DNA from: a virus
Lineage: Duplodnaviria; Caudoviricetes
Strand: one strand, 5' to 3'
DNA length: 64,000 nucleotides
IMG/VR virus record: IMGVR_UViG_3300014168_000003
Span: 10,232 to 74,231 of that record
This document shows, piece by piece, positions 4,541 to 55,345 of this stretch. A model generated the notes under the pieces. That model made no database searches and had not been told where the DNA came from. It saw nothing but the letters and a program-made list of their open reading frames with translations. The first letter of the stretch is position 1, and every line of letters starts with the position of its first letter. The translations under genes were made by a program, and so were the position numbers.

Positions 4541-5953
4541 TCAGAATGAGTCGTCAAAAGTGATCTTTCTTCGATCTTTTTTGACCGGTTGAACTTCCGC
4601 TGGTACTGCTGGTTTCTCTGGTTCTGGCTCTGGATTTACGGCTGGGGGCTCCGGGGTAGAGGCAGGGACAGAGATACCATCTTCATCATCTTCATCGTCA
4701 TATTTTGGCTTACTCTTAGGTTTGGGCTGGATGGCTTTTTCACCTTTTTCTTTCACCAGGGTGGGGCCATCTTCTCCTTGCACTACTTTGACATCTCCGA
4801 CAAATGGATCGTGGATGATTTCAGCCGGTTGTCTATTCCTGGTTATCTCTACAGCATCCCCTTCGACTTCATCAAAATCGTGACGCTTTACTACCAATGG
4901 AGTCCAAGTTTCTGGATGAGCAGCTACATATTCCGCATCCTCATTCGAGTTCTCCCCATGGGTAACTCCAGTGTCAGGAAGCTGGGCGAGTAAGTCTTCC
5001 ATTGAAGTGAGCTTGGGAGAGACCAGCATCTGGAGAAGAGCTTTATCTTCAGCTTCTTGAACCGCATCCAACTGCTCTTCATGCCATTTTTCTGCTGCCT
5101 CTTTGAGTTCCCCACCCAATACAATACCCACTTCTGGCTCTTCTACGGTGCCCTGAACCATCTTCACAATTTTGTCACTAAGCGGGTGGCCAGCAAATTC
5201 GCGCCTTTCGACGTAATTTGGATCTCCCTCATCAGATGGAAGCCCACTTTCAGACTCTTCCTCATCATCATATTTAGGCTTCTGAGGCTCCTCTGTAAGG
5301 GAGCCATACCGCTGCTTCAACAGAGGATAGGGGTCTTCGTTCTCCATTAAGCCTTGGCTGGATGGCATCCGCAGGAGAGAGGCATTGGCCTGTTCGGTGC
5401 CCAGCTTATACTTCTCCATGGCCAATTTCTTCGCACTCTTCAGATGCTCAATCAGCATACTGATCGCATCCTCCATGCCTTCCAGGACTACCTCTTCACC
5501 AATCAAACGGGTGAACTCTGATTCAGCCAGGGCCTTGCAGACAGAAGCCGTGAACTTAAGATCATGGGCCTTGAGGATTTCAGTGATGGCAATCTGGTAC
5601 CATACGGTGAATGCCGCCTCCAGTCCATCTTTGTTGTGGATGGCCGCACGGACTTTTCCCAAAAAGAATAGGGCTCGACTGTGAATGGATTCGATCTTAT
5701 CAGTGACCAACTGTAGAGACTGAGTGAGTTGCACCAGATAAGACTGAGCCGTGCCGGGGGCTACAGAGGATAGGAGAGTGATTTGCTCGACCCCATCCGC
5801 TTCTTTCAACAACCTCAAGTAGTAGTCATCAAAGGAGTAAGCCTCCTCAGATGATTTGTAGGTGAAGGTCGAGCGGAGCTTTTCCACCTTCTCAAGCAGC
5901 CCTGTTCCCTCCAGGACCGTCTCAGCTTTCAGTTGATTCAATATCGGTAACAT
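4541..5953 (-). CDS. Hypothetical protein with helical N-half and acidic disordered C-half
   Basis: 470-aa ORF co-oriented and abutting neighbours; E/D/P-rich C-terminus. Confidence 0.7.
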   Translation of the reverse strand: MLPILNQLKAETVLEGTGLLEKVEKLRSTFTYKSSEEAYSFDDYYLRLLKEADGVEQITLLSSVAPGTAQSYLVQLTQSLQLVTDKIESIHSRALFFLGKVRAAIHNKDGLEAAFTVWYQIAITEILKAHDLKFTASVCKALAESEFTRLIGEEVVLEGMEDAISMLIEHLKSAKKLAMEKYKLGTEQANASLLRMPSSQGLMENEDPYPLLKQRYGSLTEEPQKPKYDDEEESESGLPSDEGDPNYVERREFAGHPLSDKIVKMVQGTVEEPEVGIVLGGELKEAAEKWHEEQLDAVQEAEDKALLQMLVSPKLTSMEDLLAQLPDTGVTHGENSNEDAEYVAAHPETWTPLVVKRHDFDEVEGDAVEITRNRQPAEIIHDPFVGDVKVVQGEDGPTLVKEKGEKAIQPKPKSKPKYDDEDDEDGISVPASTPEPPAVNPEPEPEKPAVPAEVQPVKKDRRKITFDDSF

Positions 5954-9697: not shown

Positions 9698-10483
9698 TCA
9701 GTCCTTCGAAACGATTTGCTTTTTACGACTTTTGCGCCTACTCCTCCACCATGTTGAATACGCCAACGCTGTGATGAGAGCAGCCACAACTCCTAATACT
9801 GCTCCCCAGCCAGGGCCGTTGGTGATAGTATGGTTCAGACTGAAGAAAAGAGAAGAGGGAAATTTTGAGACAACATCAAGATGAAGGGGCCGGGTTGAAA
9901 TATCTGTTCCAGCCGTATCATTCTCTGCAAAAATCTTGAGGGTGAAAAGAAGGTCTACTTTACCCTTACGGAGTGGGGTAACCTCATACCGCCAAGTGGC
10001 CGGATAGCCCTTGGGAGCCCTGTGCTGCCTTTCCTGCTGTCCTGGGGCGGGAGCGATGTCAAACTGCCCTGGAAGGGCTCCTTGAAGGGCTACGAGGTAA
10101 TATGCAGATACGGGAACAAGGGTGGCACCGATGCCAATTTCATTCGAATGAGAAGCGTCTGCCACCAGATCTGGTTCAGCGATAACTACTGTGATGATTC
10201 CGGTCTTCCCCACCGTCCAAACGGAAGTATCGGTCTCCACTTCTAAGGTGTCCATAGCCTCCTTCTCAGGGGGTTTAGGAGGTGGCTTAGGCGTGGCCGC
10301 TACCTTCAGATGTGACTGCTTGACTGCCTTTGCCACAGACTTCGAGATGGCCTGCTCCTCCACCTTAGTCTGGGCTGTCGTTTCGACCGGAGCAGGCAGA
10401 GCTACCCGCACAGGTGGAGGCATCTTCCCACAATTTATCATTAGTAACAATCCCATCATTAGGGTAAAACATATGGGTCGCAT
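9698..10483 (-). CDS. Predicted lipoprotein with C-terminal TM helix; u-spanin-like topology
   Basis: N-terminal hydrophobic signal ending LMINC, Pro-rich linker, beta-rich domain, C-terminal TM WGAVLGVVAALITALAY followed by RSRRKSRKK. Confidence 0.5.
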   Translation of the reverse strand: MRPICFTLMMGLLLMINCGKMPPPVRVALPAPVETTAQTKVEEQAISKSVAKAVKQSHLKVAATPKPPPKPPEKEAMDTLEVETDTSVWTVGKTGIITVVIAEPDLVADASHSNEIGIGATLVPVSAYYLVALQGALPGQFDIAPAPGQQERQHRAPKGYPATWRYEVTPLRKGKVDLLFTLKIFAENDTAGTDISTRPLHLDVVSKFPSSLFFSLNHTITNGPGWGAVLGVVAALITALAYSTWWRSRRKSRKKQIVSKD

Positions 10484-12071: not shown

Positions 12072-12953
12072 TTATTTTGCACCAAACCTATACGTATAAA
12101 GGACTGTCCACCCATTATTCACATAACCAGTGGCGATCCCAGATACTGGAGAGAACTGCTTTCCGATCAGACCACTCAGACGGGGTTTTCCAGTTTGCAT
12201 ATCATAACTGGATCCGATCATAAACGTATATTTTGGTGTTGGAGCAGTTCTGGCAATATCCGACTGACTAAAATAGGCATCCCCGTTGATTAAGGGGATT
12301 TGCTCAGTTCCAATCTTGACCGATCCGTTGTACACATCCCTAGATAGTGTAAGTGCTGCCCTTGCACCATCCCCACTGGTTCTCCACTCTCCATAACTTG
12401 CTGTAAATTTTTCGGTGTGGTTGTCCCACTGACTCTTAAGTCCGGAAGAGGCTGGATCATATGTGAGATTGAGAGCAGTCAGCGGGGGGGCCGACCCTCT
12501 ATCCTGGGTCAGAGTCGTGCTAAAGCCCCCAGTCGGAGTTTTCTGCACGGTAGTTTGACCCATAGCGGATAATTGCCCCTGGATTTGCCCAACCGCTGTG
12601 GCAAGATTTGTGAGAGTCCCATCCTGTTTAGCCACAGCCGCATTAAAGGCAGACCCCATCTGAGCCTTAACCTTATCTTCCAAATCTGACTGAGTAACCA
12701 CATGCCCTGCAAGCTGGTCCACCTTATCAGAAAGAGCCTGGAACTGAGCCATTTGAGTCTGAGCGATTGCTTGAGTCGGCATATTACGCTTTGTTACCCA
12801 CCACGTGATCCCAATAGCTAGAATTAGAATCAGAAAATGCCCACCACTGAAATTAATGGTAGGCATTTGAAATCTGGGAGGGTCCACAGGAAGCGGGGTA
12901 ATAGCTGGAGATGGGACCAGTGCTGGAGCTGAAGTGAATTGTGTGTCAGGCAT
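12072..12953 (-). CDS. Membrane-anchored coiled-coil protein with beta-rich C-terminus; spanin-like
   Basis: TM FLILILAIGITWW, then a Q/A-rich coiled coil, ending in amphipathic beta strands ...WTVLYTYRFGAK. Confidence 0.5.
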   Translation of the reverse strand: MPDTQFTSAPALVPSPAITPLPVDPPRFQMPTINFSGGHFLILILAIGITWWVTKRNMPTQAIAQTQMAQFQALSDKVDQLAGHVVTQSDLEDKVKAQMGSAFNAAVAKQDGTLTNLATAVGQIQGQLSAMGQTTVQKTPTGGFSTTLTQDRGSAPPLTALNLTYDPASSGLKSQWDNHTEKFTASYGEWRTSGDGARAALTLSRDVYNGSVKIGTEQIPLINGDAYFSQSDIARTAPTPKYTFMIGSSYDMQTGKPRLSGLIGKQFSPVSGIATGYVNNGWTVLYTYRFGAK

Positions 12954-13016: not shown

Positions 13017-13805
13017 CTAAGAGGGTTTAGCGGGGTAGCCCTTCTTCTTATAGCCGAACACCCATCCCTCTGCTAAAAACCCAGGAATATCGATTTCCTG
13101 AACTCGTCTAGATTCGTGACTATTGTTCATCCACTTGCCCCTTGGAAGGGCGCGTAGCTTAGCTTTGGTCTCTTCAGAAGAATGTGTACCTTCGTGTAGC
13201 TCAGATAAATGCTGTCGTTGTTCTATCGAAAGGTGCCCACCTTTATTCCAGCCCACCTTCCCAGCATTTTTTCCTAAATTACTTAACCCTATTTTCTTTT
13301 TGGTTTCTTCAGAGGGGAGGTATCCCTCTCTAGTTTTAAGCATTCGCTGTCGTATGGTTGGATCATCTTGGTGCATTTTCTTCATTCGTTCTGATTGTCG
13401 TTGTCGCTGCTCAGGTGTTAGCTTCATGCCCAATGTAGTAGACGGAGTAGGTGAGATGTTATAACCGTTATCAATAACATCGTAAACCCCCATCCAGTAT
13501 TTCTCTCTAGCATTAAGAATTGAAGGAGTCTTTTCACAAACTTCCAAAATACCAAAGACCCAATCTTGAGGAGAATATTTATCCCAGGCAGCCTGTAATT
13601 TTTGATGCTTGTTTTTGTAAGCTCCTCGCATCAAACACTTCCAATGGTTGTACCATCGTCCATATATCCCTGTCTTTCCAGCAGCTTGTCCGACATAAGA
13701 TTTTCCAGATTTCTTATTATATATCCTATATACTCCAATAATTACTTCAGAAAACCCATTAGCTGAATGAAAGTAGTTTCTTTGTTCAATATTTCGGTAT
13801 GGCAT
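13017..13805 (-). mobile_element. Free-standing GIY-YIG homing endonuclease with NUMOD3 repeats
   Basis: GVYRIYNKKSGKSYVGQA..GRW..H, REKYWM..GYNI, SEETKKKIG and SEETKAKL repeats; AT-rich relative to flanks. Confidence 0.9.
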
Positions 13806-13865: not shown

Positions 13866-14948
13866 TTATTTTCTAGAATTTAAAATCCTCACATAATTCA
13901 GGCAACCAGAAGCGGTCGCATCAAACGGAGTTGCAGAAAGTCTGGCCTCTGAAACTTTAAATCTCACATCAAGGTTTTCCATGAAAATTTTGTTGAAAAG
14001 TTTCATAAAATTAGGAGATTTAGTAGTGCCTCCGGCCAAAACAACCGGAATCATCCCAGGAATCTCTACCCTATTCTCATTGAAAGCAAAATATTTATTA
14101 GTTGCATTGACCAACTTAGTAATTAGGTCAGTATAGGCTACTGAGATAGCTTCAGCTTGCCGTTCAGTCTGAGTGTCATCAAACTCACCCTGAGCCGTTA
14201 CCACCCCTGTCATCAAATCAACACCCCGCTCCTTCAACAAGGTGATATGAGAGAGGGTGGAATCAGTTGCCTTTGCTGCCATATGGTCGATGTAGTCTCC
14301 GCCAAATGGAAGGGCAAAGGACTTAACTGGTATTGATTTAAAGGTAAGGGCTAAATTTGATGTGCCAGCCCCAAAACTAATGGCCAATCCAGTGAGGGGC
14401 ACTTCATCCTTGTTCTTTGGGGAAACAGTCTCATTGAAACATACAGAGACCGCCTCATTGACCGGACGGGCTGTATAACCCAGATCAGTGATGAGATTCT
14501 TGAAGAAACTAGTATGGAAGGCAAGAGAGGTATCCCCACTAGTCTTAGGGGCAACAGTGGACTCAAGGTCAAAGATAGGGCCGGGGACTGAGAAGGCCAC
14601 GAGTTCCCCCGGAACCTGGGGTTTGCCAAGGATCTGTTGAAGGATGAGTTGGAGAATCTCCTTACCATCCTCTTCTTTAGGACTGATAAAGCCCTTGCTG
14701 AGAGGGCGGCGTAGCTCCCCTCCGAGTACACCAATCAGGTTGATCGCATCATTGCCGACCACATAGACTTCTTCCGCACCCTCAATAAACTCCACTCCAG
14801 CGATTTCCAATGCAGGAGATTGGTCGAGAGGAAGAGCCAGGAAGCAATCTCTTACTGAGCTAATTTTGACTTTATTGTCGATGTCAGATTTGGCAGAGAC
14901 GATGTAGGCGGTACCAATATCTAATCCTATTCCGGTGGTGTTTGGCAT
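13866..14948 (-). CDS. Actin-fold ATPase (MreB/FtsA/ParM superfamily)
   Basis: Phosphate 1 IGLDIGTAY, connect VNEAVSV, phosphate 2 ISFGAGTSNL, FGGDYID, adenosine VVLAGGTT. Confidence 0.85.
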   Translation of the reverse strand: MPNTTGIGLDIGTAYIVSAKSDIDNKVKISSVRDCFLALPLDQSPALEIAGVEFIEGAEEVYVVGNDAINLIGVLGGELRRPLSKGFISPKEEDGKEILQLILQQILGKPQVPGELVAFSVPGPIFDLESTVAPKTSGDTSLAFHTSFFKNLITDLGYTARPVNEAVSVCFNETVSPKNKDEVPLTGLAISFGAGTSNLALTFKSIPVKSFALPFGGDYIDHMAAKATDSTLSHITLLKERGVDLMTGVVTAQGEFDDTQTERQAEAISVAYTDLITKLVNATNKYFAFNENRVEIPGMIPVVLAGGTTKSPNFMKLFNKIFMENLDVRFKVSEARLSATPFDATASGCLNYVRILNSRK

Positions 14949-50148: not shown

Positions 50149-50835
50149 TTAACCCTTTGCCGATCCTGCTGGGGTGCGGGGGCGATTCACCCTCTTAACT
50201 CTGGAGAGAACGGCATCAACTGCTTCAGCTTCAGAAAGCTGACCATGACCCTGCGTAGGATCCTCACCCAGAGCAGACTCAAGGATGGGGGATGTCCGCT
50301 CCGGAGCCGCTGGGGCCACAACCTTTCCGATAGGCTTGGGAAGGGGCTTGGGGGCTGGCTTGGGAGTAGGGGCCGGAACTACTGGTCTTGCTGGAGGTGG
50401 GACGGGACGAGGGGCCTGGGGGGTCGGAACGGGCTTGGCGGTAGGGGTATTGGAACGATTTGCAGGACGCAAGGCCGCAGCCTTGGAGATAGCCTTATTG
50501 GCAGTTGCCTGATTGATGGCAGCCTGAGCCTGAGCAATCTGGGCCTGAGCCGCAGCAATGATCTCATAGGGGTCCGTGGAGGTCTCCTGCTCTTCACCTT
50601 CCTCACCCTCAACACCGATCTCTTCAAGCCATCCGTGACCAAGCATGGTCTCAATGCCCTGATCGGTCAGGGTAAGTTCACGCTCCTTATACCCATCCGA
50701 AAACTGATAGGTGGTGTGAGCGATCTGAGTGATCGTATCCCCTGGTAGAGCCGTAAAGCCATTGGGAGTCTTCCCATCTGGTCCCTTCTGAGGAAAGTTT
50801 ACGTCTCGGGTGAATTTATAGCATTTTTGAGTCAT
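50149..50835 (-). CDS. Hypothetical protein with Pro/Ala-rich linker
   Basis: 228 aa, GGAG RBS; the N-terminal domain resembles the N-terminus of the adjacent 49689-50147 gene (YxFxRxxxFP...xPGD). Confidence 0.65.
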   Translation of the reverse strand: MTQKCYKFTRDVNFPQKGPDGKTPNGFTALPGDTITQIAHTTYQFSDGYKERELTLTDQGIETMLGHGWLEEIGVEGEEGEEQETSTDPYEIIAAAQAQIAQAQAAINQATANKAISKAAALRPANRSNTPTAKPVPTPQAPRPVPPPARPVVPAPTPKPAPKPLPKPIGKVVAPAAPERTSPILESALGEDPTQGHGQLSEAEAVDAVLSRVKRVNRPRTPAGSAKG

Positions 50836-50905
50836 GCGTTCTCCATAGATGAGATCCTTCTATAAGATAGAGGGGGATATTAAGTTAATACTCGATTTGA
50901 GAAAA

Positions 50906-50933
50906 AGAAAGCCCCAATTTCTTGGGGCTTTCT
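50906..50933 (-). terminator. Intrinsic terminator after the major capsid gene (potentially bidirectional)
   Basis: agaaagccccaa-tttc-ttggggctttct with T-runs on both strands. Confidence 0.85.
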
Positions 50934-50958
50934 CATTTTTACCAGACTTATCTGGATT

Positions 50959-51897
50959 TTAGGAGCGGGTGATCACGATACGTTCAAGTCCTGATGGGTT
51001 GAAGATCAGGAATCCGAGGATCTCGAACACGCTGAATCCGATCTGACGAAGGTCAGGGCGGTCAGCACTTAGAACGGTCAGGGGGACACGCTCAGGGATG
51101 ACACCAAGGAACTCGGCATCAGCCATGACCCAGACATCACCGTAATTGACTTTTCTGGACTGCAAGATCGTTGCGCCCCAGAGATAGCCCATAATACCGG
51201 TTTTCAGCAAGTGACGCTGAGTCTCACGGTCGATGTTGTCATCAGTCCACTTCAGGATGTCCACATAATCACGAGGATTCATGAAGATGTAGGCGACTGA
51301 AAGGTCGTGACGCTGCACCATACCGAAGGCATCTGCGAAGGGATCAACGGCGAGGCCGTAAGGTCCGGAAGCTGAAGAAACGGTATAGGCAAGGCTCTTG
51401 TTGTAGACGTAATCAGTGTATCCGGTCGAAGAAGTAGCGGTGGTGGCTGCTGCGTCAATGGCGAGGAACATATTGAAAACGTGGTTGTCTTCGGCGGCTC
51501 CGACTTCGGCCTTCGCCAGATTGAGTGCGCGAGAAACGATGTCGAATCTGCGCTCTTTAATCTGGGTGATTGGAATCATGGGGTTAGACACGATTTCAAA
51601 CGTGGGGACCGTGACACGGATAGGATTGGCAACGTTAACAACGTCTCCACCCTGTTCACCGACCACGAACGCCTGCACGAAGCTGCGTCCGGTTTCGTCA
51701 AATTCCTTGTCGTAAATCGGGAGGGCTCCATCGGGAAGTGTTTCTACCATCAATGCTTTACGGGCGATTGACATGTAGTCACGGCGACGACGAAGAGAGG
51801 GGCCTAGAGCGGCGGCTAGCTTCTGGCGACCGGCTGCGGTCTTCAGAATCTGACCAAGCTGGGCGGTCTGTGCTTGGGTGCGGGATAGAATAGTCAT
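50959..51897 (-). CDS. Major capsid protein (HK97 fold)
   Basis: GRQKLAAALGPSLRRRRDY..LPDGALPIYDKE, IKERRFDIV, MNPRDYVDI, GIMGYLWGATILQS; strong RBS, GC3-rich codons, downstream of protease and scaffold. Confidence 0.85.
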   Translation of the reverse strand: MTILSRTQAQTAQLGQILKTAAGRQKLAAALGPSLRRRRDYMSIARKALMVETLPDGALPIYDKEFDETGRSFVQAFVVGEQGGDVVNVANPIRVTVPTFEIVSNPMIPITQIKERRFDIVSRALNLAKAEVGAAEDNHVFNMFLAIDAAATTATSSTGYTDYVYNKSLAYTVSSASGPYGLAVDPFADAFGMVQRHDLSVAYIFMNPRDYVDILKWTDDNIDRETQRHLLKTGIMGYLWGATILQSRKVNYGDVWVMADAEFLGVIPERVPLTVLSADRPDLRQIGFSVFEILGFLIFNPSGLERIVITRS

Positions 51898-51912: not shown

Positions 51913-52720
51913 TTACAAGAACGAAGCAACGCCAAGCCAGGGCTCGGTGGCAGAGATTGGGTGGGTGCAGATACCCACGACGATGGATCCGGCAGTGTTT
52001 GCGGAACCAGGGGTTGCCGTAAACATTCCAGGACCAACCGAACCACCAACGTTAGCAGTGTAGAGACGCTGACCGTTGAGGGGGGTGCTGCCTGTCACCT
52101 GAGAGGCGGGAACCTTGAACTTGGGGAATGCGCGGACCACAGGGGTCTTGCCAGAACCCGAAGGGGTAATGGAAGACGAGAACTGGCCAGCACCCAAGAG
52201 CAAGAAGCCGTAGGGGACTTCTGGAGCGGCTCCGGTGAGGGAGGTTGCGCCGTCCAGAGGGTGAACGATGAGATTGAGAACGCCAGGGGTAGTGGCCCCA
52301 TTGTAAAGAATGCTAACGATGGCTCCAGAATTATAGCCAGCAGCAGTCAATGCAGCATTATCAGTCCCAGGATCACCTGTGAGAGTCAGATTGGGGACGC
52401 AAGTTCCGTCATTCTGACCGTAATATTCGCATTTGTTTCACTTGTGGTTTTCAGACCCACTAGGAAATTTTTCTCTACCACTTCAGTTTTCACTGCCACT
52501 ACCATTAGTGTTTGTGGTCTGGACTATGCCTTCATCTTGTTGAAATTTCTTCAAGTTAGATGGGTTATTATAGTCTCTACACGTTCAAATCTCAGCACCG
52601 TATGATTTGCTTCGCTCGGCGTTGGCATCAGGGTTACCTGGAAGCGTTCACCGAATTTAAACCTTACGAACGTAATGTTTCCACTGCGCCGACCCGATAT
52701 ATATTAAGTTCGAGATACAT
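51913..52720 (-). CDS. Putative capsid decoration protein, spliced: join(52713..52720, 51913..52429), 174 aa
   Basis: AGGAG RBS plus ATGTATCT (exon 1) joins in frame to CGAATATTACGGTCAG... (exon 2), giving MYLEYYGQNDGTCVPNLTLTGDPG...; 8+517=525 nt; directly upstream of the MCP. Confidence 0.8.
52430..52712 (-). ncRNA. Group I self-splicing intron, 283 nt, no internal ORF
   Basis: P AAATTCGGTGAA (52647-52658), Q AACGCCGAGCGAAGC (52609-52623), R GTGTAGAGACTATA (52569-52582), S AAGGCATAGTCC (52521-52532); P4-P8 pairings; U.G at the 5' splice site; terminal G. Confidence 0.92.
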
Positions 52721-52879
52721 TCTCTACTCTCCTATATATGATTTTTCGCTTCTCCATGGATCAGCCGAGGTGGCGAGATCGCTACAAGATGGAGTCGCTT
52801 GTGCATATGAGGAAGGGATATTAGCAAAACAAAGTTACTTATATAACGTGGTTTTCCAGTATTAGATATAGAGGTTAGA

Positions 52880-53542
52880 ATGACAAGACCACTAGGTATT
52901 TACCCATTTCCATATGACACCAGGGCAGGGGTGTACCAAATTGAAAATAAACTGAGTGGAGTCGTATATATTGGCTCTGCCATTAATTTCTATCGAAGAT
53001 GGAGGAGACATCACAATGAACTCACTAGGGGAGTTCACAGCAATCAGCATCTCCAGAGAGCTTGGGATAAGTATGGGCCTGACTCGTTTATCTGGACTGT
53101 GTTGGAAGAAACCAACTGCACCCGTGAAACACTGCTAAGCCGTGAACAGTACTGGATGGATAGAATAAAAAAAGAGGGGGTATTACTTTACAATACCTGC
53201 GTCACTGCTGGTTCCCATCTAGGTGTAAAACGTTCTGAAAAAACCAGGAAATTAATGTCTGAAATTGCTAAAAAACGAGGAGATAATGGTATTAGACGAG
53301 ATGAAGAATGGTGCAGGCAAGTGTCAGAAGCAAATAAGAATAATGTAGAAACTAGATGTGATGCGAAGTTTAGAGAGAAGATGTCAAAACTAAAGATTGG
53401 AAATATGTATTGTAAAGGAAAAAAATGGATCAATAAAAATGGGTGCAGCAAAAGAGTGTCTTTAGAGGAGCTGCCTCTATTCTTGGAGCAGGGTTGGAAG
53501 AAGGGGAGAGCCACTATAGTAATTCTGCCACCTGAGAAGTAA
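52880..53542 (+). mobile_element. Free-standing GIY-YIG homing endonuclease (NUMOD3), the only well-supported plus-strand gene
   Basis: AGVYQIENKLSGVVYIGSAINFYRRWRRH, SNQHLQRAWDKYG, REQYWMD..YN, RSEKTRKLMSE; AT-rich; GAGG RBS and CAGTATTA motif upstream. Confidence 0.9.
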
Positions 53543-53993
53543 AAGTTACCAGAGGGAATTCTCTAATTACCTGTAATTTGGTATCACCCTGATAAAAAAA
53601 GGAGTCGTATCTACTGGAAAAAGAATCCATATCATCAAGATTGAGCCCGGTTACTTCTACCCACTTACATTCTTCTGGATGTTCCACATCATCCATGAGA
53701 ACTTTGTACTTCATATTCATATAACTAGCAGTAGGATTAGAATAATCAGGATTAGATTTTTTGATCTTAAATTGCTCGTAAATCCACATCCAATTTCGAA
53801 CATATTGAGCCGTATAGACTTTATTCTGAAAATCAGGGTAATAGGGGTCTGTAAAATAATAAAATTTAGCACTGGAAGCTCGTTGTTTGAGCGATTCCCA
53901 AATTTTAAGAGTCATCATTCTTTTATCCTTGAGAATACGAATAAGATTCCAGGTTGGGTCTTCATTAGTCCACATAAGAAATCGGCCCCTCAT
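53514..53993 (-). CDS. Hypothetical AT-rich protein; true start probably downstream of 53993
   Basis: Convergent with and overlapping the GIY-YIG 3' end. The track start lies inside a hairpin; ATG 53918 has an AAGGA RBS. Confidence 0.55.
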   Translation of the reverse strand: MRGRFLMWTNEDPTWNLIRILKDKRMMTLKIWESLKQRASSAKFYYFTDPYYPDFQNKVYTAQYVRNWMWIYEQFKIKKSNPDYSNPTASYMNMKYKVLMDDVEHPEECKWVEVTGLNLDDMDSFSSRYDSFFYQGDTKLQVIREFPLVTFTSQVAELL

Positions 53994-54006
53994 GTAAGGG
54001 GCCGAT
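53981..54006 (-). terminator. Probable terminator after the scaffold gene
   Basis: atcggcccct-catgta-aggggccgat followed on the minus strand by TTCTTAT. Confidence 0.7.
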
Positions 54007-54082
54007 ATTCAGAGAGCTATTTGCTTACTGTTTATTTCAATCCACTCATAAGGAAATTCCGTATGAGACTACCACCTTCATT

Positions 54083-55345
54083 TTAGATGTCATCCGTGAA
54101 GACAAGGTTAGCAAGCATTGCCTGCTCTTTGCTCATATCCGTGGCGGTCTTGACATTGCCGAGACTGCGGATTGAAGCGGCCTTAGCGGCTGGCTTGGCA
54201 GGGGCCTTGGAGGCGACTGACTTCTTTGGGGGTTCGAGCTTTGGCTCACCCTCACGCTTGGCACCCGGATCATACTTGTCAACGCCTAGGGTCTTCAGAA
54301 CCTCATAGAGGATCACATCTTCATGATCTTCCTCAGCGTCTGGCACTCCACCTTCATTCAGAAGATCATCAGCCATATCGCCACGCTCGACAATCGGATC
54401 ATCCACACCCTGGACCTTTGCAGCTACCTTCTGATCGGCAAGCAGCACATCGAGGGAAGAGATGTCATAGCGAGAGGCATGATGGAAGAAATCTTCAGGG
54501 GATGCGGTTGCTCCACCCTCTTCAAGCTCATTGGGCTCGGATCCGAAGAATCCTGCGCCACCATCAGCTTCAACGGGAAGACCATCCTCACCAAACTCCT
54601 CACCCTCACCCTCATTTGCCAACGCATCGGTCTTGTCGCCCATGTCGTCTTCGTTGAAGATCTTGGTGAAATCGAGTTCCTCTTCGCCTTCAATTGCTTC
54701 CTCAAGGGAAGTAACATCGGCTTCAAGATTGTCAATCTTTTCCTGGAGTTCCTGCTTCTTTTCGTCAGGAATTGGCTCACCAGCGGGGGCTCCACCTTCA
54801 GGAGGCATCGTCTCATCCATCGGAGGAGTAGTTTCGTCAACTGGAGGAACCGTCTCATCAACTGGAGGAACATCACCTTCTGGGGGAACATCACCCATTG
54901 GGGGCATTTCGTCCTTGGGGGCCTCATCCTTTGGAGCCTCATCTTTCTTGGGCTCTTCAGTCTCATCAGCCTTCTTGTTCAAGTCGGCAGTCTTGGGCTC
55001 ACCCTTCAATTCCTTCTCGACTTCACCCTTCATCTTCTTGAGGAAGGACTCATCTTCGAGGAACTCATTGAGTTCAACTTTGTGTACCTGCTCGAACTTC
55101 TCGGCAATCTTGGTATAATGAGCATTGATGGCCGTCTGACGCAGCATTGCAGTCAGTGCCTTGGTGCTATTCGCCAAGAGCGAGGAAGCGAGTTTGTACT
55201 GGATTTCGTTCGGAGCGGTCGGAAGCAACGACTTGGCAAGCGTCCATGCAGAGGCTACGCGAATCTTAGCTTCCTTATGGGTAGACTGCTTTGTTTCTCG
55301 GATGCTAGCGAGGCGTTCTTTCAGGGACTTACGATCTTCGGCCAT
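54083..55345 (-). CDS. Capsid scaffolding protein
   Basis: Highly acidic, E/D/P-rich with coiled coils, between protease and capsid genes; late-class motif at 55379-55401. Confidence 0.7.
   Translation of the reverse strand: MAEDRKSLKERLASIRETKQSTHKEAKIRVASAWTLAKSLLPTAPNEIQYKLASSLLANSTKALTAMLRQTAINAHYTKIAEKFEQVHKVELNEFLEDESFLKKMKGEVEKELKGEPKTADLNKKADETEEPKKDEAPKDEAPKDEMPPMGDVPPEGDVPPVDETVPPVDETTPPMDETMPPEGGAPAGEPIPDEKKQELQEKIDNLEADVTSLEEAIEGEEELDFTKIFNEDDMGDKTDALANEGEGEEFGEDGLPVEADGGAGFFGSEPNELEEGGATASPEDFFHHASRYDISSLDVLLADQKVAAKVQGVDDPIVERGDMADDLLNEGGVPDAEEDHEDVILYEVLKTLGVDKYDPGAKREGEPKLEPPKKSVASKAPAKPAAKAASIRSLGNVKTATDMSKEQAMLANLVFTDDI

Follow-up and report, generated by a model that had tools for sequence, protein, structure and literature searches.

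An insert in the head module of a jumbo phage is best explained, as a whole, as a collaborative (trans) homing cassette, a reading to which we give a probability of roughly 55%. The insert lies in a window of 64 kb (positions 10,232 to 74,231 of the IMG/VR record IMGVR_UViG_3300014168_000003), part of a 74-kb viral contig that is estimated to be about 24% complete. "The window", or WIN, always means this whole 64-kb stretch, and the loci of relatives carry L-numbers. The source is a fragment of an uncultured jumbo phage. A group I intron without an open reading frame (ORF) splits a small head gene there, and directly beside it, outside the intron, lies a free-standing gene for a GIY-YIG endonuclease.

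If this reading is right, the intron would splice itself out of the late transcript, guided by its internal guide sequence (IGS), 5'-UCG|GGU-3'. Splicing would restore MYLELEYYGQND, and the head gene would stay functional. During a mixed infection, the nuclease would cut relatives that lack the cassette, near the 5' end of their head gene. Donor-templated repair would then copy the nuclease gene and, by co-conversion, also the intron some 160 nt away. It is further possible, at somewhat less than even odds, that the recognition site spans the intron insertion point, which would mean that the intron makes the donor immune. Read in this way, the locus is a further natural example of the already known process of collaborative homing, a rarely documented route of spread.

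The split head gene, its intron and the nuclease

The stop-to-stop ORF of the small head gene, 51913..52437 on the minus strand, opens NKCEYYGQND and reads NKCEYYGQNDGT.. From 52437 onwards, this frame holds no ATG, GTG or TTG before a TTG at 52350. Further upstream there is an ATG at 52720 with an AGGAG ribosome-binding site (RBS), and without splicing this start meets a stop codon 18 codons later. Joining exon 1 (52720..52707) to exon 2 (from 52429) yields MYLELEYYGQND, which equals the N-terminus of the intron-less relatives L012 and L027. The predicted spliced junction is CTCGAACT followed by CGAATATT, and the intron interrupts codon 5.

Relatives bear this out. The intron-less L012 and L013 have an uninterrupted gene that opens MYLELEYYGQNDG (61% protein identity), and their DNA homology to the window picks up again at 52428. 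The same junction logic is valid for the L004-type, which has a 73% identical intron and is found on seven other contigs, and for the L010-type, where the intron is 96% identical. Most relatives have an uninterrupted start, M-[SA]-L-K-L-x-YYGQND.

One might also hold that there is no intron at all: the head gene would start at TTG 52350 or be a pseudogene, and 52430-52720 would be non-functional spacer. This TTG is what ORF callers pick, and Rfam at its gathering threshold stays empty. However, the TTG has no RBS, and starting there would delete the invariant YYGQND..LTGDPGTD N-terminus. The frame is moreover open for 29 codons 5' of the TTG, with no start codon in that part. Given that splicing gives exactly the N-terminus of the intron-less relatives, and given 11 compensatory pairs in the group I fold, the absence of an intron is very improbable.

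Judged by sequence and fold, 52706..52430 is a group I intron of the self-splicing type, and splicing is predicted. As the original prediction stated, it has no ORF: there is nothing nuclease-sized in its 277 nt, and both the restored reading frame and the covarying fold support the intron itself. When 341 nt are searched alone, the Rfam model RF00028 matches 52722..52499 (minus strand) with 32.1 bits and an E-value of 1.3e-6, where the gathering threshold of this model is 50 bits.

The helices P1 to P9, including the P3/P7 pseudoknot, were assigned by hand and scored on three variants (window, L010 and L004). This fold has 61 pairs, with 98.4% of cells paired. Eleven pairs have changed on both sides (in P2, P4, P6, P7, P8, P9 and P9a), where shuffles reach 3.6 +/- 1.5 and slid controls 0-2. 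This count comes from only three distinct sequences, the same ones from which the structure was derived.

The P1 pairs A12-U29, C13-G28 and U14.G27 are kept in all three variants, the last of these being the U of the 5' exon paired to a G of the IGS, and the last base of the intron is the omega-G at 52430. The IGS pairs with the end of exon 1 (ACU, forming P1) and with the start of exon 2 (CGA, forming P10). P10 covaries as well: the window has CGA:UCG, L004 has UGA:UUG and, by alignment, the guide UUG|GGU.

Two other structural candidates were rejected. One is a 5' splice site after nt 8, which is in frame and is implied by the P1 that Rfam draws (CUCGA/UCGGG). Its product would start MYLEYYGQ, two residues short of the MYLELEYYGQ of L012 and L027; P1 would also be left with only two exon base pairs, and the homology of nt 9-14 to intron-less alleles would be ignored. 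The other is a long-range helix, CAGACC/GGUCUG, rejected since it is not kept in L010 or L004.

The nuclease gene encodes 220 amino acids (aa) on the opposite strand. It matches the Pfam GIY-YIG family PF01541 with 44.5 bits (cut-off 22.6), the homing endonuclease groups phrog_314 and phrog_7168, and the I-TevI catalytic domain structures 1LN0 and 1MK0 (E 9e-17). The columns of R27 and E75, placed by alignment with 1LN0 (R27A) and 1MK0 (E75A), hold an Arg and a Glu. The ratio of nonsynonymous to synonymous divergence (dN/dS) is 0.08 versus L010. On this evidence the nuclease is intact, retains its catalytic residues and is under purifying selection; cutting activity is predicted.

The original prediction had called this a GIY-YIG/NUMOD3 gene, of which only the first half survives. 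NUMOD3 is not significant in the window's nuclease (E 1.5, 9.3 bits versus a cut-off of 20.4). Among its positional homologues, L032, L061 and L082 do have the domain at a significant score, and L091 is a borderline case, right at the cut-off of 20.4 bits. The predicted separation of some 160 nt between divergent starts proved accurate, with 159 nt between the ATG of the nuclease and that of exon 1. The nuclease also has the RBS and SAGTAWTA motif of its own that had been described, both of them in the spacer.

The window holds a second free-standing GIY-YIG gene at 13017-13805 (minus strand, 262 aa). It is 41% identical to the cassette nuclease across the catalytic domain, and here NUMOD3 is borderline (E 0.0012). 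It is flanked by a structural-looking gene (12072-12953) on one side and by one for an actin/ParM-like ATPase (13866-14948) on the other.

Relatives, exchange history and alternative explanations

A profile search with the small head protein recovered 80 loci from IMG/VR and 30 from metagenomes. States were scored at the 34 non-redundant loci with enough upstream sequence; three further loci with unidentified ORFs were left out of this number. An interrupted gene with a divergent upstream endonuclease is present at 7/34 loci, and an intron without an endonuclease at 0/34. Another 10/34 have the endonuclease only (GIY-YIG, an Endo VII-like and a weak HNH), while 17/34 have neither. The seven assessable interrupted alleles, all with a divergent nuclease upstream, represent five independent lineages and two intron families, and the nuclease is either GIY-YIG or HNH. 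L025, one of the 17 loci with neither, still has 24 codons from the N-terminus of a window-type GIY-YIG (MARPLGEFPFEFDSRAGIY.., L025:3700-3790). This remnant reads in the direction of the head gene, where the intact copies read the other way.

The nuclease carries the signature of mobility, which is polymorphism at a fixed site among close relatives. Its presence differs between L089, which has the nuclease, and L049, which is empty, although their major head proteins (MCPs) are identical; L040 versus L062 shows the same presence/absence pattern. On the MCP tree the nuclease changes state at least 11 times and the intron at least 5 times. There is also an empty site with the exact exon junction, in L060 as compared to the spliced L040.

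Interrupted loci outside the window's clade have a second, unrelated-looking intron family in the same gene, 213-258 nt in length (L033:3788-4000, L040:3762-4000, L048:3733-3990 and L076:1716-1944). It is also found in L117, L123 and L129 from the metagenome scan, whose contigs end 48-80 nt 5' of exon 1 and which stand outside the nuclease count. The insertion points of this family 2 are nt 18 (L033, L040, L123), nt 8 (L046/L048) and nt 19 (L076/L078, L117). It is assigned to group I by RNAalifold covariation plus manual pairing of P7, P9 and the IGS. The covariation runs over P3-P8 with 11 compensatory pairs, and a P7 pair goes from A-U to G-C. In L033, L040, L048 and L076 the guide is complementary to its own 5' exon, as checked by hand. 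The neighbouring nuclease is a SegE-like GIY-YIG in L033 and L040, and an HNH of phrog_655 in L048 and L076.

The nearest relative of the window's own intron family (family 1) outside the head gene is in L094 (IMGVR_UViG_3300038673_000510), one additional contig that was found by a core pattern search. At L094:4755-5306 a group I intron of about 380 nt (Rfam 34 bits) splits the anticodon loop of a tRNA(UAA)-like gene whose variable arm is short. Over three core segments this intron is 87-97% identical to that of the window; like the latter it has the guide GGGUC and follows a 5' exon that ends in ACU. The split gene was not called by ARAGORN; directly after it comes an intact tRNA-Leu(UAA) (5223-5306). 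By these likenesses, family 1 is a tRNA-type intron that appears to have colonised a protein-coding gene, and it plausibly arrived by reverse splicing at the ..ACU site. We also take family 1 to resemble the IC3 introns of Azoarcus and cyanobacteria, which is a lead and not a test.

Around ten intron variants, from both families and including the tRNA-borne relative, hold no ORF or ORF remnant; at this locus they measure 213-281 nt. Such compactness argues against a history of nuclease turnover, where the intron lost an endonuclease gene of its own and today's free-standing nuclease is a later, unrelated arrival. That scenario was proposed in PMC10448857, and nucleases do decay at this locus, as the 24-codon remnant in L025 attests. 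With no trace of a former ORF in any of these variants, we deem turnover improbable.

A comparison with the L004-type bears on how the insert moves. Between this type and the window, the scaffold gene, exon 2 and the MCP gene are 92-100% identical, with a synonymous divergence (dS) of 0.2-0.28. In the block 54100..52430, which opens at the scaffold stop and closes with the final base of the intron, identity is 21-75%, and dS is saturated in both the orphan gene, which also lies in the insert, and the nuclease. Identity to L004 steps from 0.74 to 0.96 at 52429, exactly at the 3' splice site. This pattern means that terminator, orphan gene, nuclease, spacer, exon 1 and intron were exchanged as one block. 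As far as population data go, the insert behaves as one exchangeable module.

Versus the L010-type the pattern is reversed: the flanks are 70-85% identical (dS about 0.8), the spacer and intron 91-98%. The topology for both intron and nuclease is ((WIN,L010),L004), versus ((WIN,L004),L010) for the flanks. Intron and nuclease thus appear to share a history that is distinct from that of the flanking head genes.

Several results weigh against collaborative homing. In the window/L010 pair, synonymous sites of the nuclease are saturated from end to end, and a windowed dS test of the nuclease N-terminus and exon 2 gave no reduced dS and no co-conversion gradient. Their exchange, or else an unusually strong constraint, would seem to have involved only the spacer and intron, which implies that the intron can move or persist separately from the nuclease ORF. 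Conversely, the nuclease occurs without the intron in at least ten lineages, and the nucleases of L056 and L089, which have no intron, are 66% identical to that of the intron-bearing L040. The nuclease then has no need of the intron, and immunity without an intron is possible; its target may be elsewhere, in the intergenic region or at the 3' end of the scaffold gene.

The statistics of co-occurrence are weak too. A naive Fisher test gives p = 0.004 over 7 loci and p = 0.015 over 5 lineages. The phylogenetically independent sign test on the MCP tree has 3-5 pairs and a median p of 0.5, and is underpowered. In nuclease-only genomes the first 36 nt do not consistently diverge more than the rest of the gene: over nuclease-only, empty and intron-bearing alleles, one clade has ratios of 0.84-1.01 and the other of 1.06-1.14. 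Rfam at its gathering threshold, which the window's intron misses with 32.1 versus 50 bits, reports nothing in the whole window or in 17 related loci. An E<=1 search of 2.4 kb lost the window's intron to the filters, and for family 2 (L040) even a local search at E<=1 found no match.

The original prediction held that intron and nuclease spread together, and suggested their co-occurrence as a check. Both ideas come out mixed, and the interpretation as a whole is partly supported. For joint inheritance there are the L004-type block swap and the concordant topologies; the L010 exchange, limited to spacer and intron, speaks against it. Co-occurrence holds from the side of the intron, with a nuclease at all seven interrupted loci and no intron-only locus, and fails from the side of the nuclease, with its ten or more intron-less lineages. 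Independent carriage by relatives, which that prediction had named as a refutation, is half observed.

It could therefore be argued that two independent selfish elements merely share a hotspot. The nuclease would home, intron-less, into the intergenic region between scaffold and head gene, with a target outside the intron site. The intron would have arrived separately, for example by IGS-guided reverse splicing, and there would be at most passive co-conversion and no immunity. Nuclease-only loci do outnumber loci with both elements (10 versus 7), and the tree has more changes for the nuclease than for the intron. The separate history of spacer and intron in the window/L010 pair fits as well. 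Family 2 has introns at nt 8, 18 and 19 whose guides fit their respective sites, as independent reverse splicing would be expected to deliver, and the relative of family 1 in a tRNA-like gene shares its IGS and the ..ACU exon end. T4 mobE (PMC2790892) is a precedent of trans homing. However, none of the 7 introns lacks a nuclease. The insertions fall within 11 nt in the most conserved coding stretch of the gene, beside a nuclease, which is unexpected for random reverse splicing. Finally, the L004-type swap covers intron and nuclease alike, with its end precisely at the 3' splice site. The hotspot is a serious contender, to be placed distinctly below even odds.

Collaborative homing also has a wider version, which is tentative and on the doubtful side. 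The first 20 nt of the head gene would be an arena of repeated insertion, at nt 8, 14, 18 and 19 and with at least five independent events. Two intron families would have taken part, one of them tRNA-derived, with guides adapted to their sites and with the assessable copies beside nucleases. The introns would have been retained as immunity patches that split the targets of these nucleases.

Features of the insert and its surroundings

The head module is on the minus strand and is syntenic with that of the 309-kb Tunturiibacter phage Tunturi_5. The shared gene order is ejection protein, virion protein, protease, scaffold-like gene, a small gene of about 170 aa (gp333) and major head protein. 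The gap between the scaffold-like gene and the small gene is around 270 nt in Tunturi_5 versus about 1.65 kb of AT-rich DNA in the window. This insert has a GC content of 35-42%, compared to 52-57% in the flanks, and it consists of a terminator, the orphan gene, the GIY-YIG gene, a 159-nt spacer, the 14-nt exon 1 and the 277-nt intron. Coordinates are listed in Table 1.

Table 1. The insert and adjoining head genes, in window coordinates
Feature	Position	Strand	Evidence
Major head protein (MCP) gene	50959..51897	-	phrog_2522, E 2.8e-42; DNA 67.7% identical to Tunturi_5 major head protein gene
Exon 2 of small head gene (homologue of Tunturi_5 gp333), stop codon included	51913..52429	-	YYGQND-to-C-terminus alignment with about 100 relatives
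ORF-less group I intron, 277 nt, ends in omega-G at 52430; tRNA-type (IC3-like) core	52430..52706	-	RF00028 local match, covariation
Exon 1 of small head gene, ATGTATCTCGAACT, 14 nt, ends in U	52707..52720	-	Homologous to first 14 nt of intron-less L012/L013/L027
159-nt spacer between divergent starts	52721..52879	.	Native upstream element of head gene, plus nuclease RBS and SAGTAWTA motif
Free-standing GIY-YIG homing endonuclease gene, 220 aa, I-TevI-like catalytic domain	52880..53542	+	Pfam, PHROG and structure match
Orphan gene, 153 aa from conserved Met 53975	53514..53975	-	Conserved ORF in L004-/L010-type cassettes
Intrinsic-terminator-like hairpin 3' of scaffold-like gene	53981..54006	-	11-bp stem, 7 GC pairs, T-rich tail
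Scaffold-like acidic gene (left border of insert)	54083..55345	-	Syntenic with Tunturi_5 gp332, between protease and small head gene

This gene map agrees with the original prediction that an insert separates the scaffold-like gene from the small head gene and MCP, and that it includes a convergent AT-rich orphan ORF, which is kept in relatives, and a terminator, here an 11-bp hairpin. The neighbours had been described as "decoration/MCP", and of these the MCP stands. The decoration label is unproven: the small head protein has no Pfam or PHROG match, and its AlphaFold model, from an 18-sequence alignment, has a predicted local distance difference test (pLDDT) score of 53 and is unusable. GenBank annotates Tunturi_5 gp333 (L001:6940-7437) as "tail fiber protein". 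Its neighbours, the scaffold-like gene and the gene of the major head protein, point to a head protein rather than a tail fiber.

The spacer holds elements that belong to two genes. Its SAGTAWTA instance, CAGTATTA at 52857-52864 (plus strand), is 16 nt 5' of the nuclease ATG. The motif has 20 matches in the window where 3.9 are expected, a five-fold excess that 0/100 shuffles reach. Most copies are upstream of genes on the coding (minus) strand, for example at 50886-50893 (minus), and SAGTAWTA is likely a phage promoter element. On the head gene side there is an upstream element GTGATCT[CT]G..(N)..GCTGATCC, in full GATCTCGCC..GCTGATCC, at 52745-52790 (minus strand) and some 50-60 nt 5' of the head-gene ATG. 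It is kept in WIN, L004, L012, L025 and L027, so in interrupted and uninterrupted alleles alike, and may be a late promoter or regulatory site. Since this element is also found upstream of alleles that have neither intron nor nuclease, the nuclease gene is outside the intron.

The orphan gene converges on the nuclease gene and overlaps its 3' end by 29 nt. Its ORF (53514..53993, 35% GC versus 52-57% in the flanks) has a further upstream ATG at 53993, inside the terminator loop. The protein is 65-71% identical to its counterparts in the L004-/L010-type cassettes, and a dN/dS of 0.18 indicates purifying selection. No relative was found in Pfam, PHROG or Atlas, the Atlas model is poor, and the gene is absent at all loci outside the window's clade. 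In L004, L012 and L027 there is an equivalent but different hairpin in place of the terminator.

There is another mosaic boundary 3' of the MCP stop. At 50300-50950, identity between the window and the L004-type is 30-40%, as against 92-100% elsewhere, and a proline-rich gene (50149-50835) is replaced in the L004-type.

Significance and known systems

Collaborative homing is one of two proposed origins of mobile introns that carry an endonuclease, and to the known cases the present locus contributes one from a structural gene of a jumbo phage. What it brings beyond that is a series of variants, unusually rich, at one 20-nt site. Public metagenomes turn out to hold a graded natural series: empty, nuclease-only, nuclease-plus-intron (where nucleases of three lineages meet introns of two families) and a decayed remnant. 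With this series it becomes testable whether the intron protects the target of the nuclease, and how such pairs form. There is also a lesson for annotation, as gene calling wrongly starts the split gene at an internal TTG, and with default settings Rfam finds neither intron family.

Knowledge of the process goes back to 2009 (Zeng, Bonocora and Shub 2009; Bonocora and Shub 2009), as PMC3984707 summarises. As in that F-CphI system, intron and nuclease are here inherited as a block. The host gene is different: a small head-module gene of a jumbo phage, with the intron 14 nt into the coding sequence. F-CphI has an Endo VII motif (PMC6083498), whereas the nuclease described here is an I-TevI-like GIY-YIG that may cut at the insertion site. 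The present cassette in addition has an orphan gene, and there are several independent pairings of intron and nuclease at a single locus.

Vibrio phage ICP1 has an intron in its large terminase gene and a T5orf172 endonuclease gene adjacent to it, and nucleases are found there at the boundaries of genetic exchange (PMC10448857). Both cases have a free-standing nuclease beside a short N-terminal exon of an intron-split morphogenesis gene, and both have recombination breakpoints at the nuclease locus. Nuclease family, gene and phage group differ, and here the step in identity is exactly at the 3' splice site.

T4 mobE performs trans homing of the I-TevIII intron (PMC2790892), and seg-type genes home intron-less (PMC2988022). 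As with those, a free-standing GIY-YIG or HNH gene sits between conserved genes, is polymorphic in close relatives and would be able to mobilise neighbouring DNA by co-conversion. The intron mobilised in T4 has a defunct endonuclease ORF, whereas the introns here are ORF-less. Finally, the window's intron has core blocks and an IGS in common with the L094 intron, and in this it is like the tRNA-Leu(UAA)-type (IC3) introns, a subgroup label given by likeness only. In contrast to these, it interrupts a protein-coding gene and not an anticodon loop.

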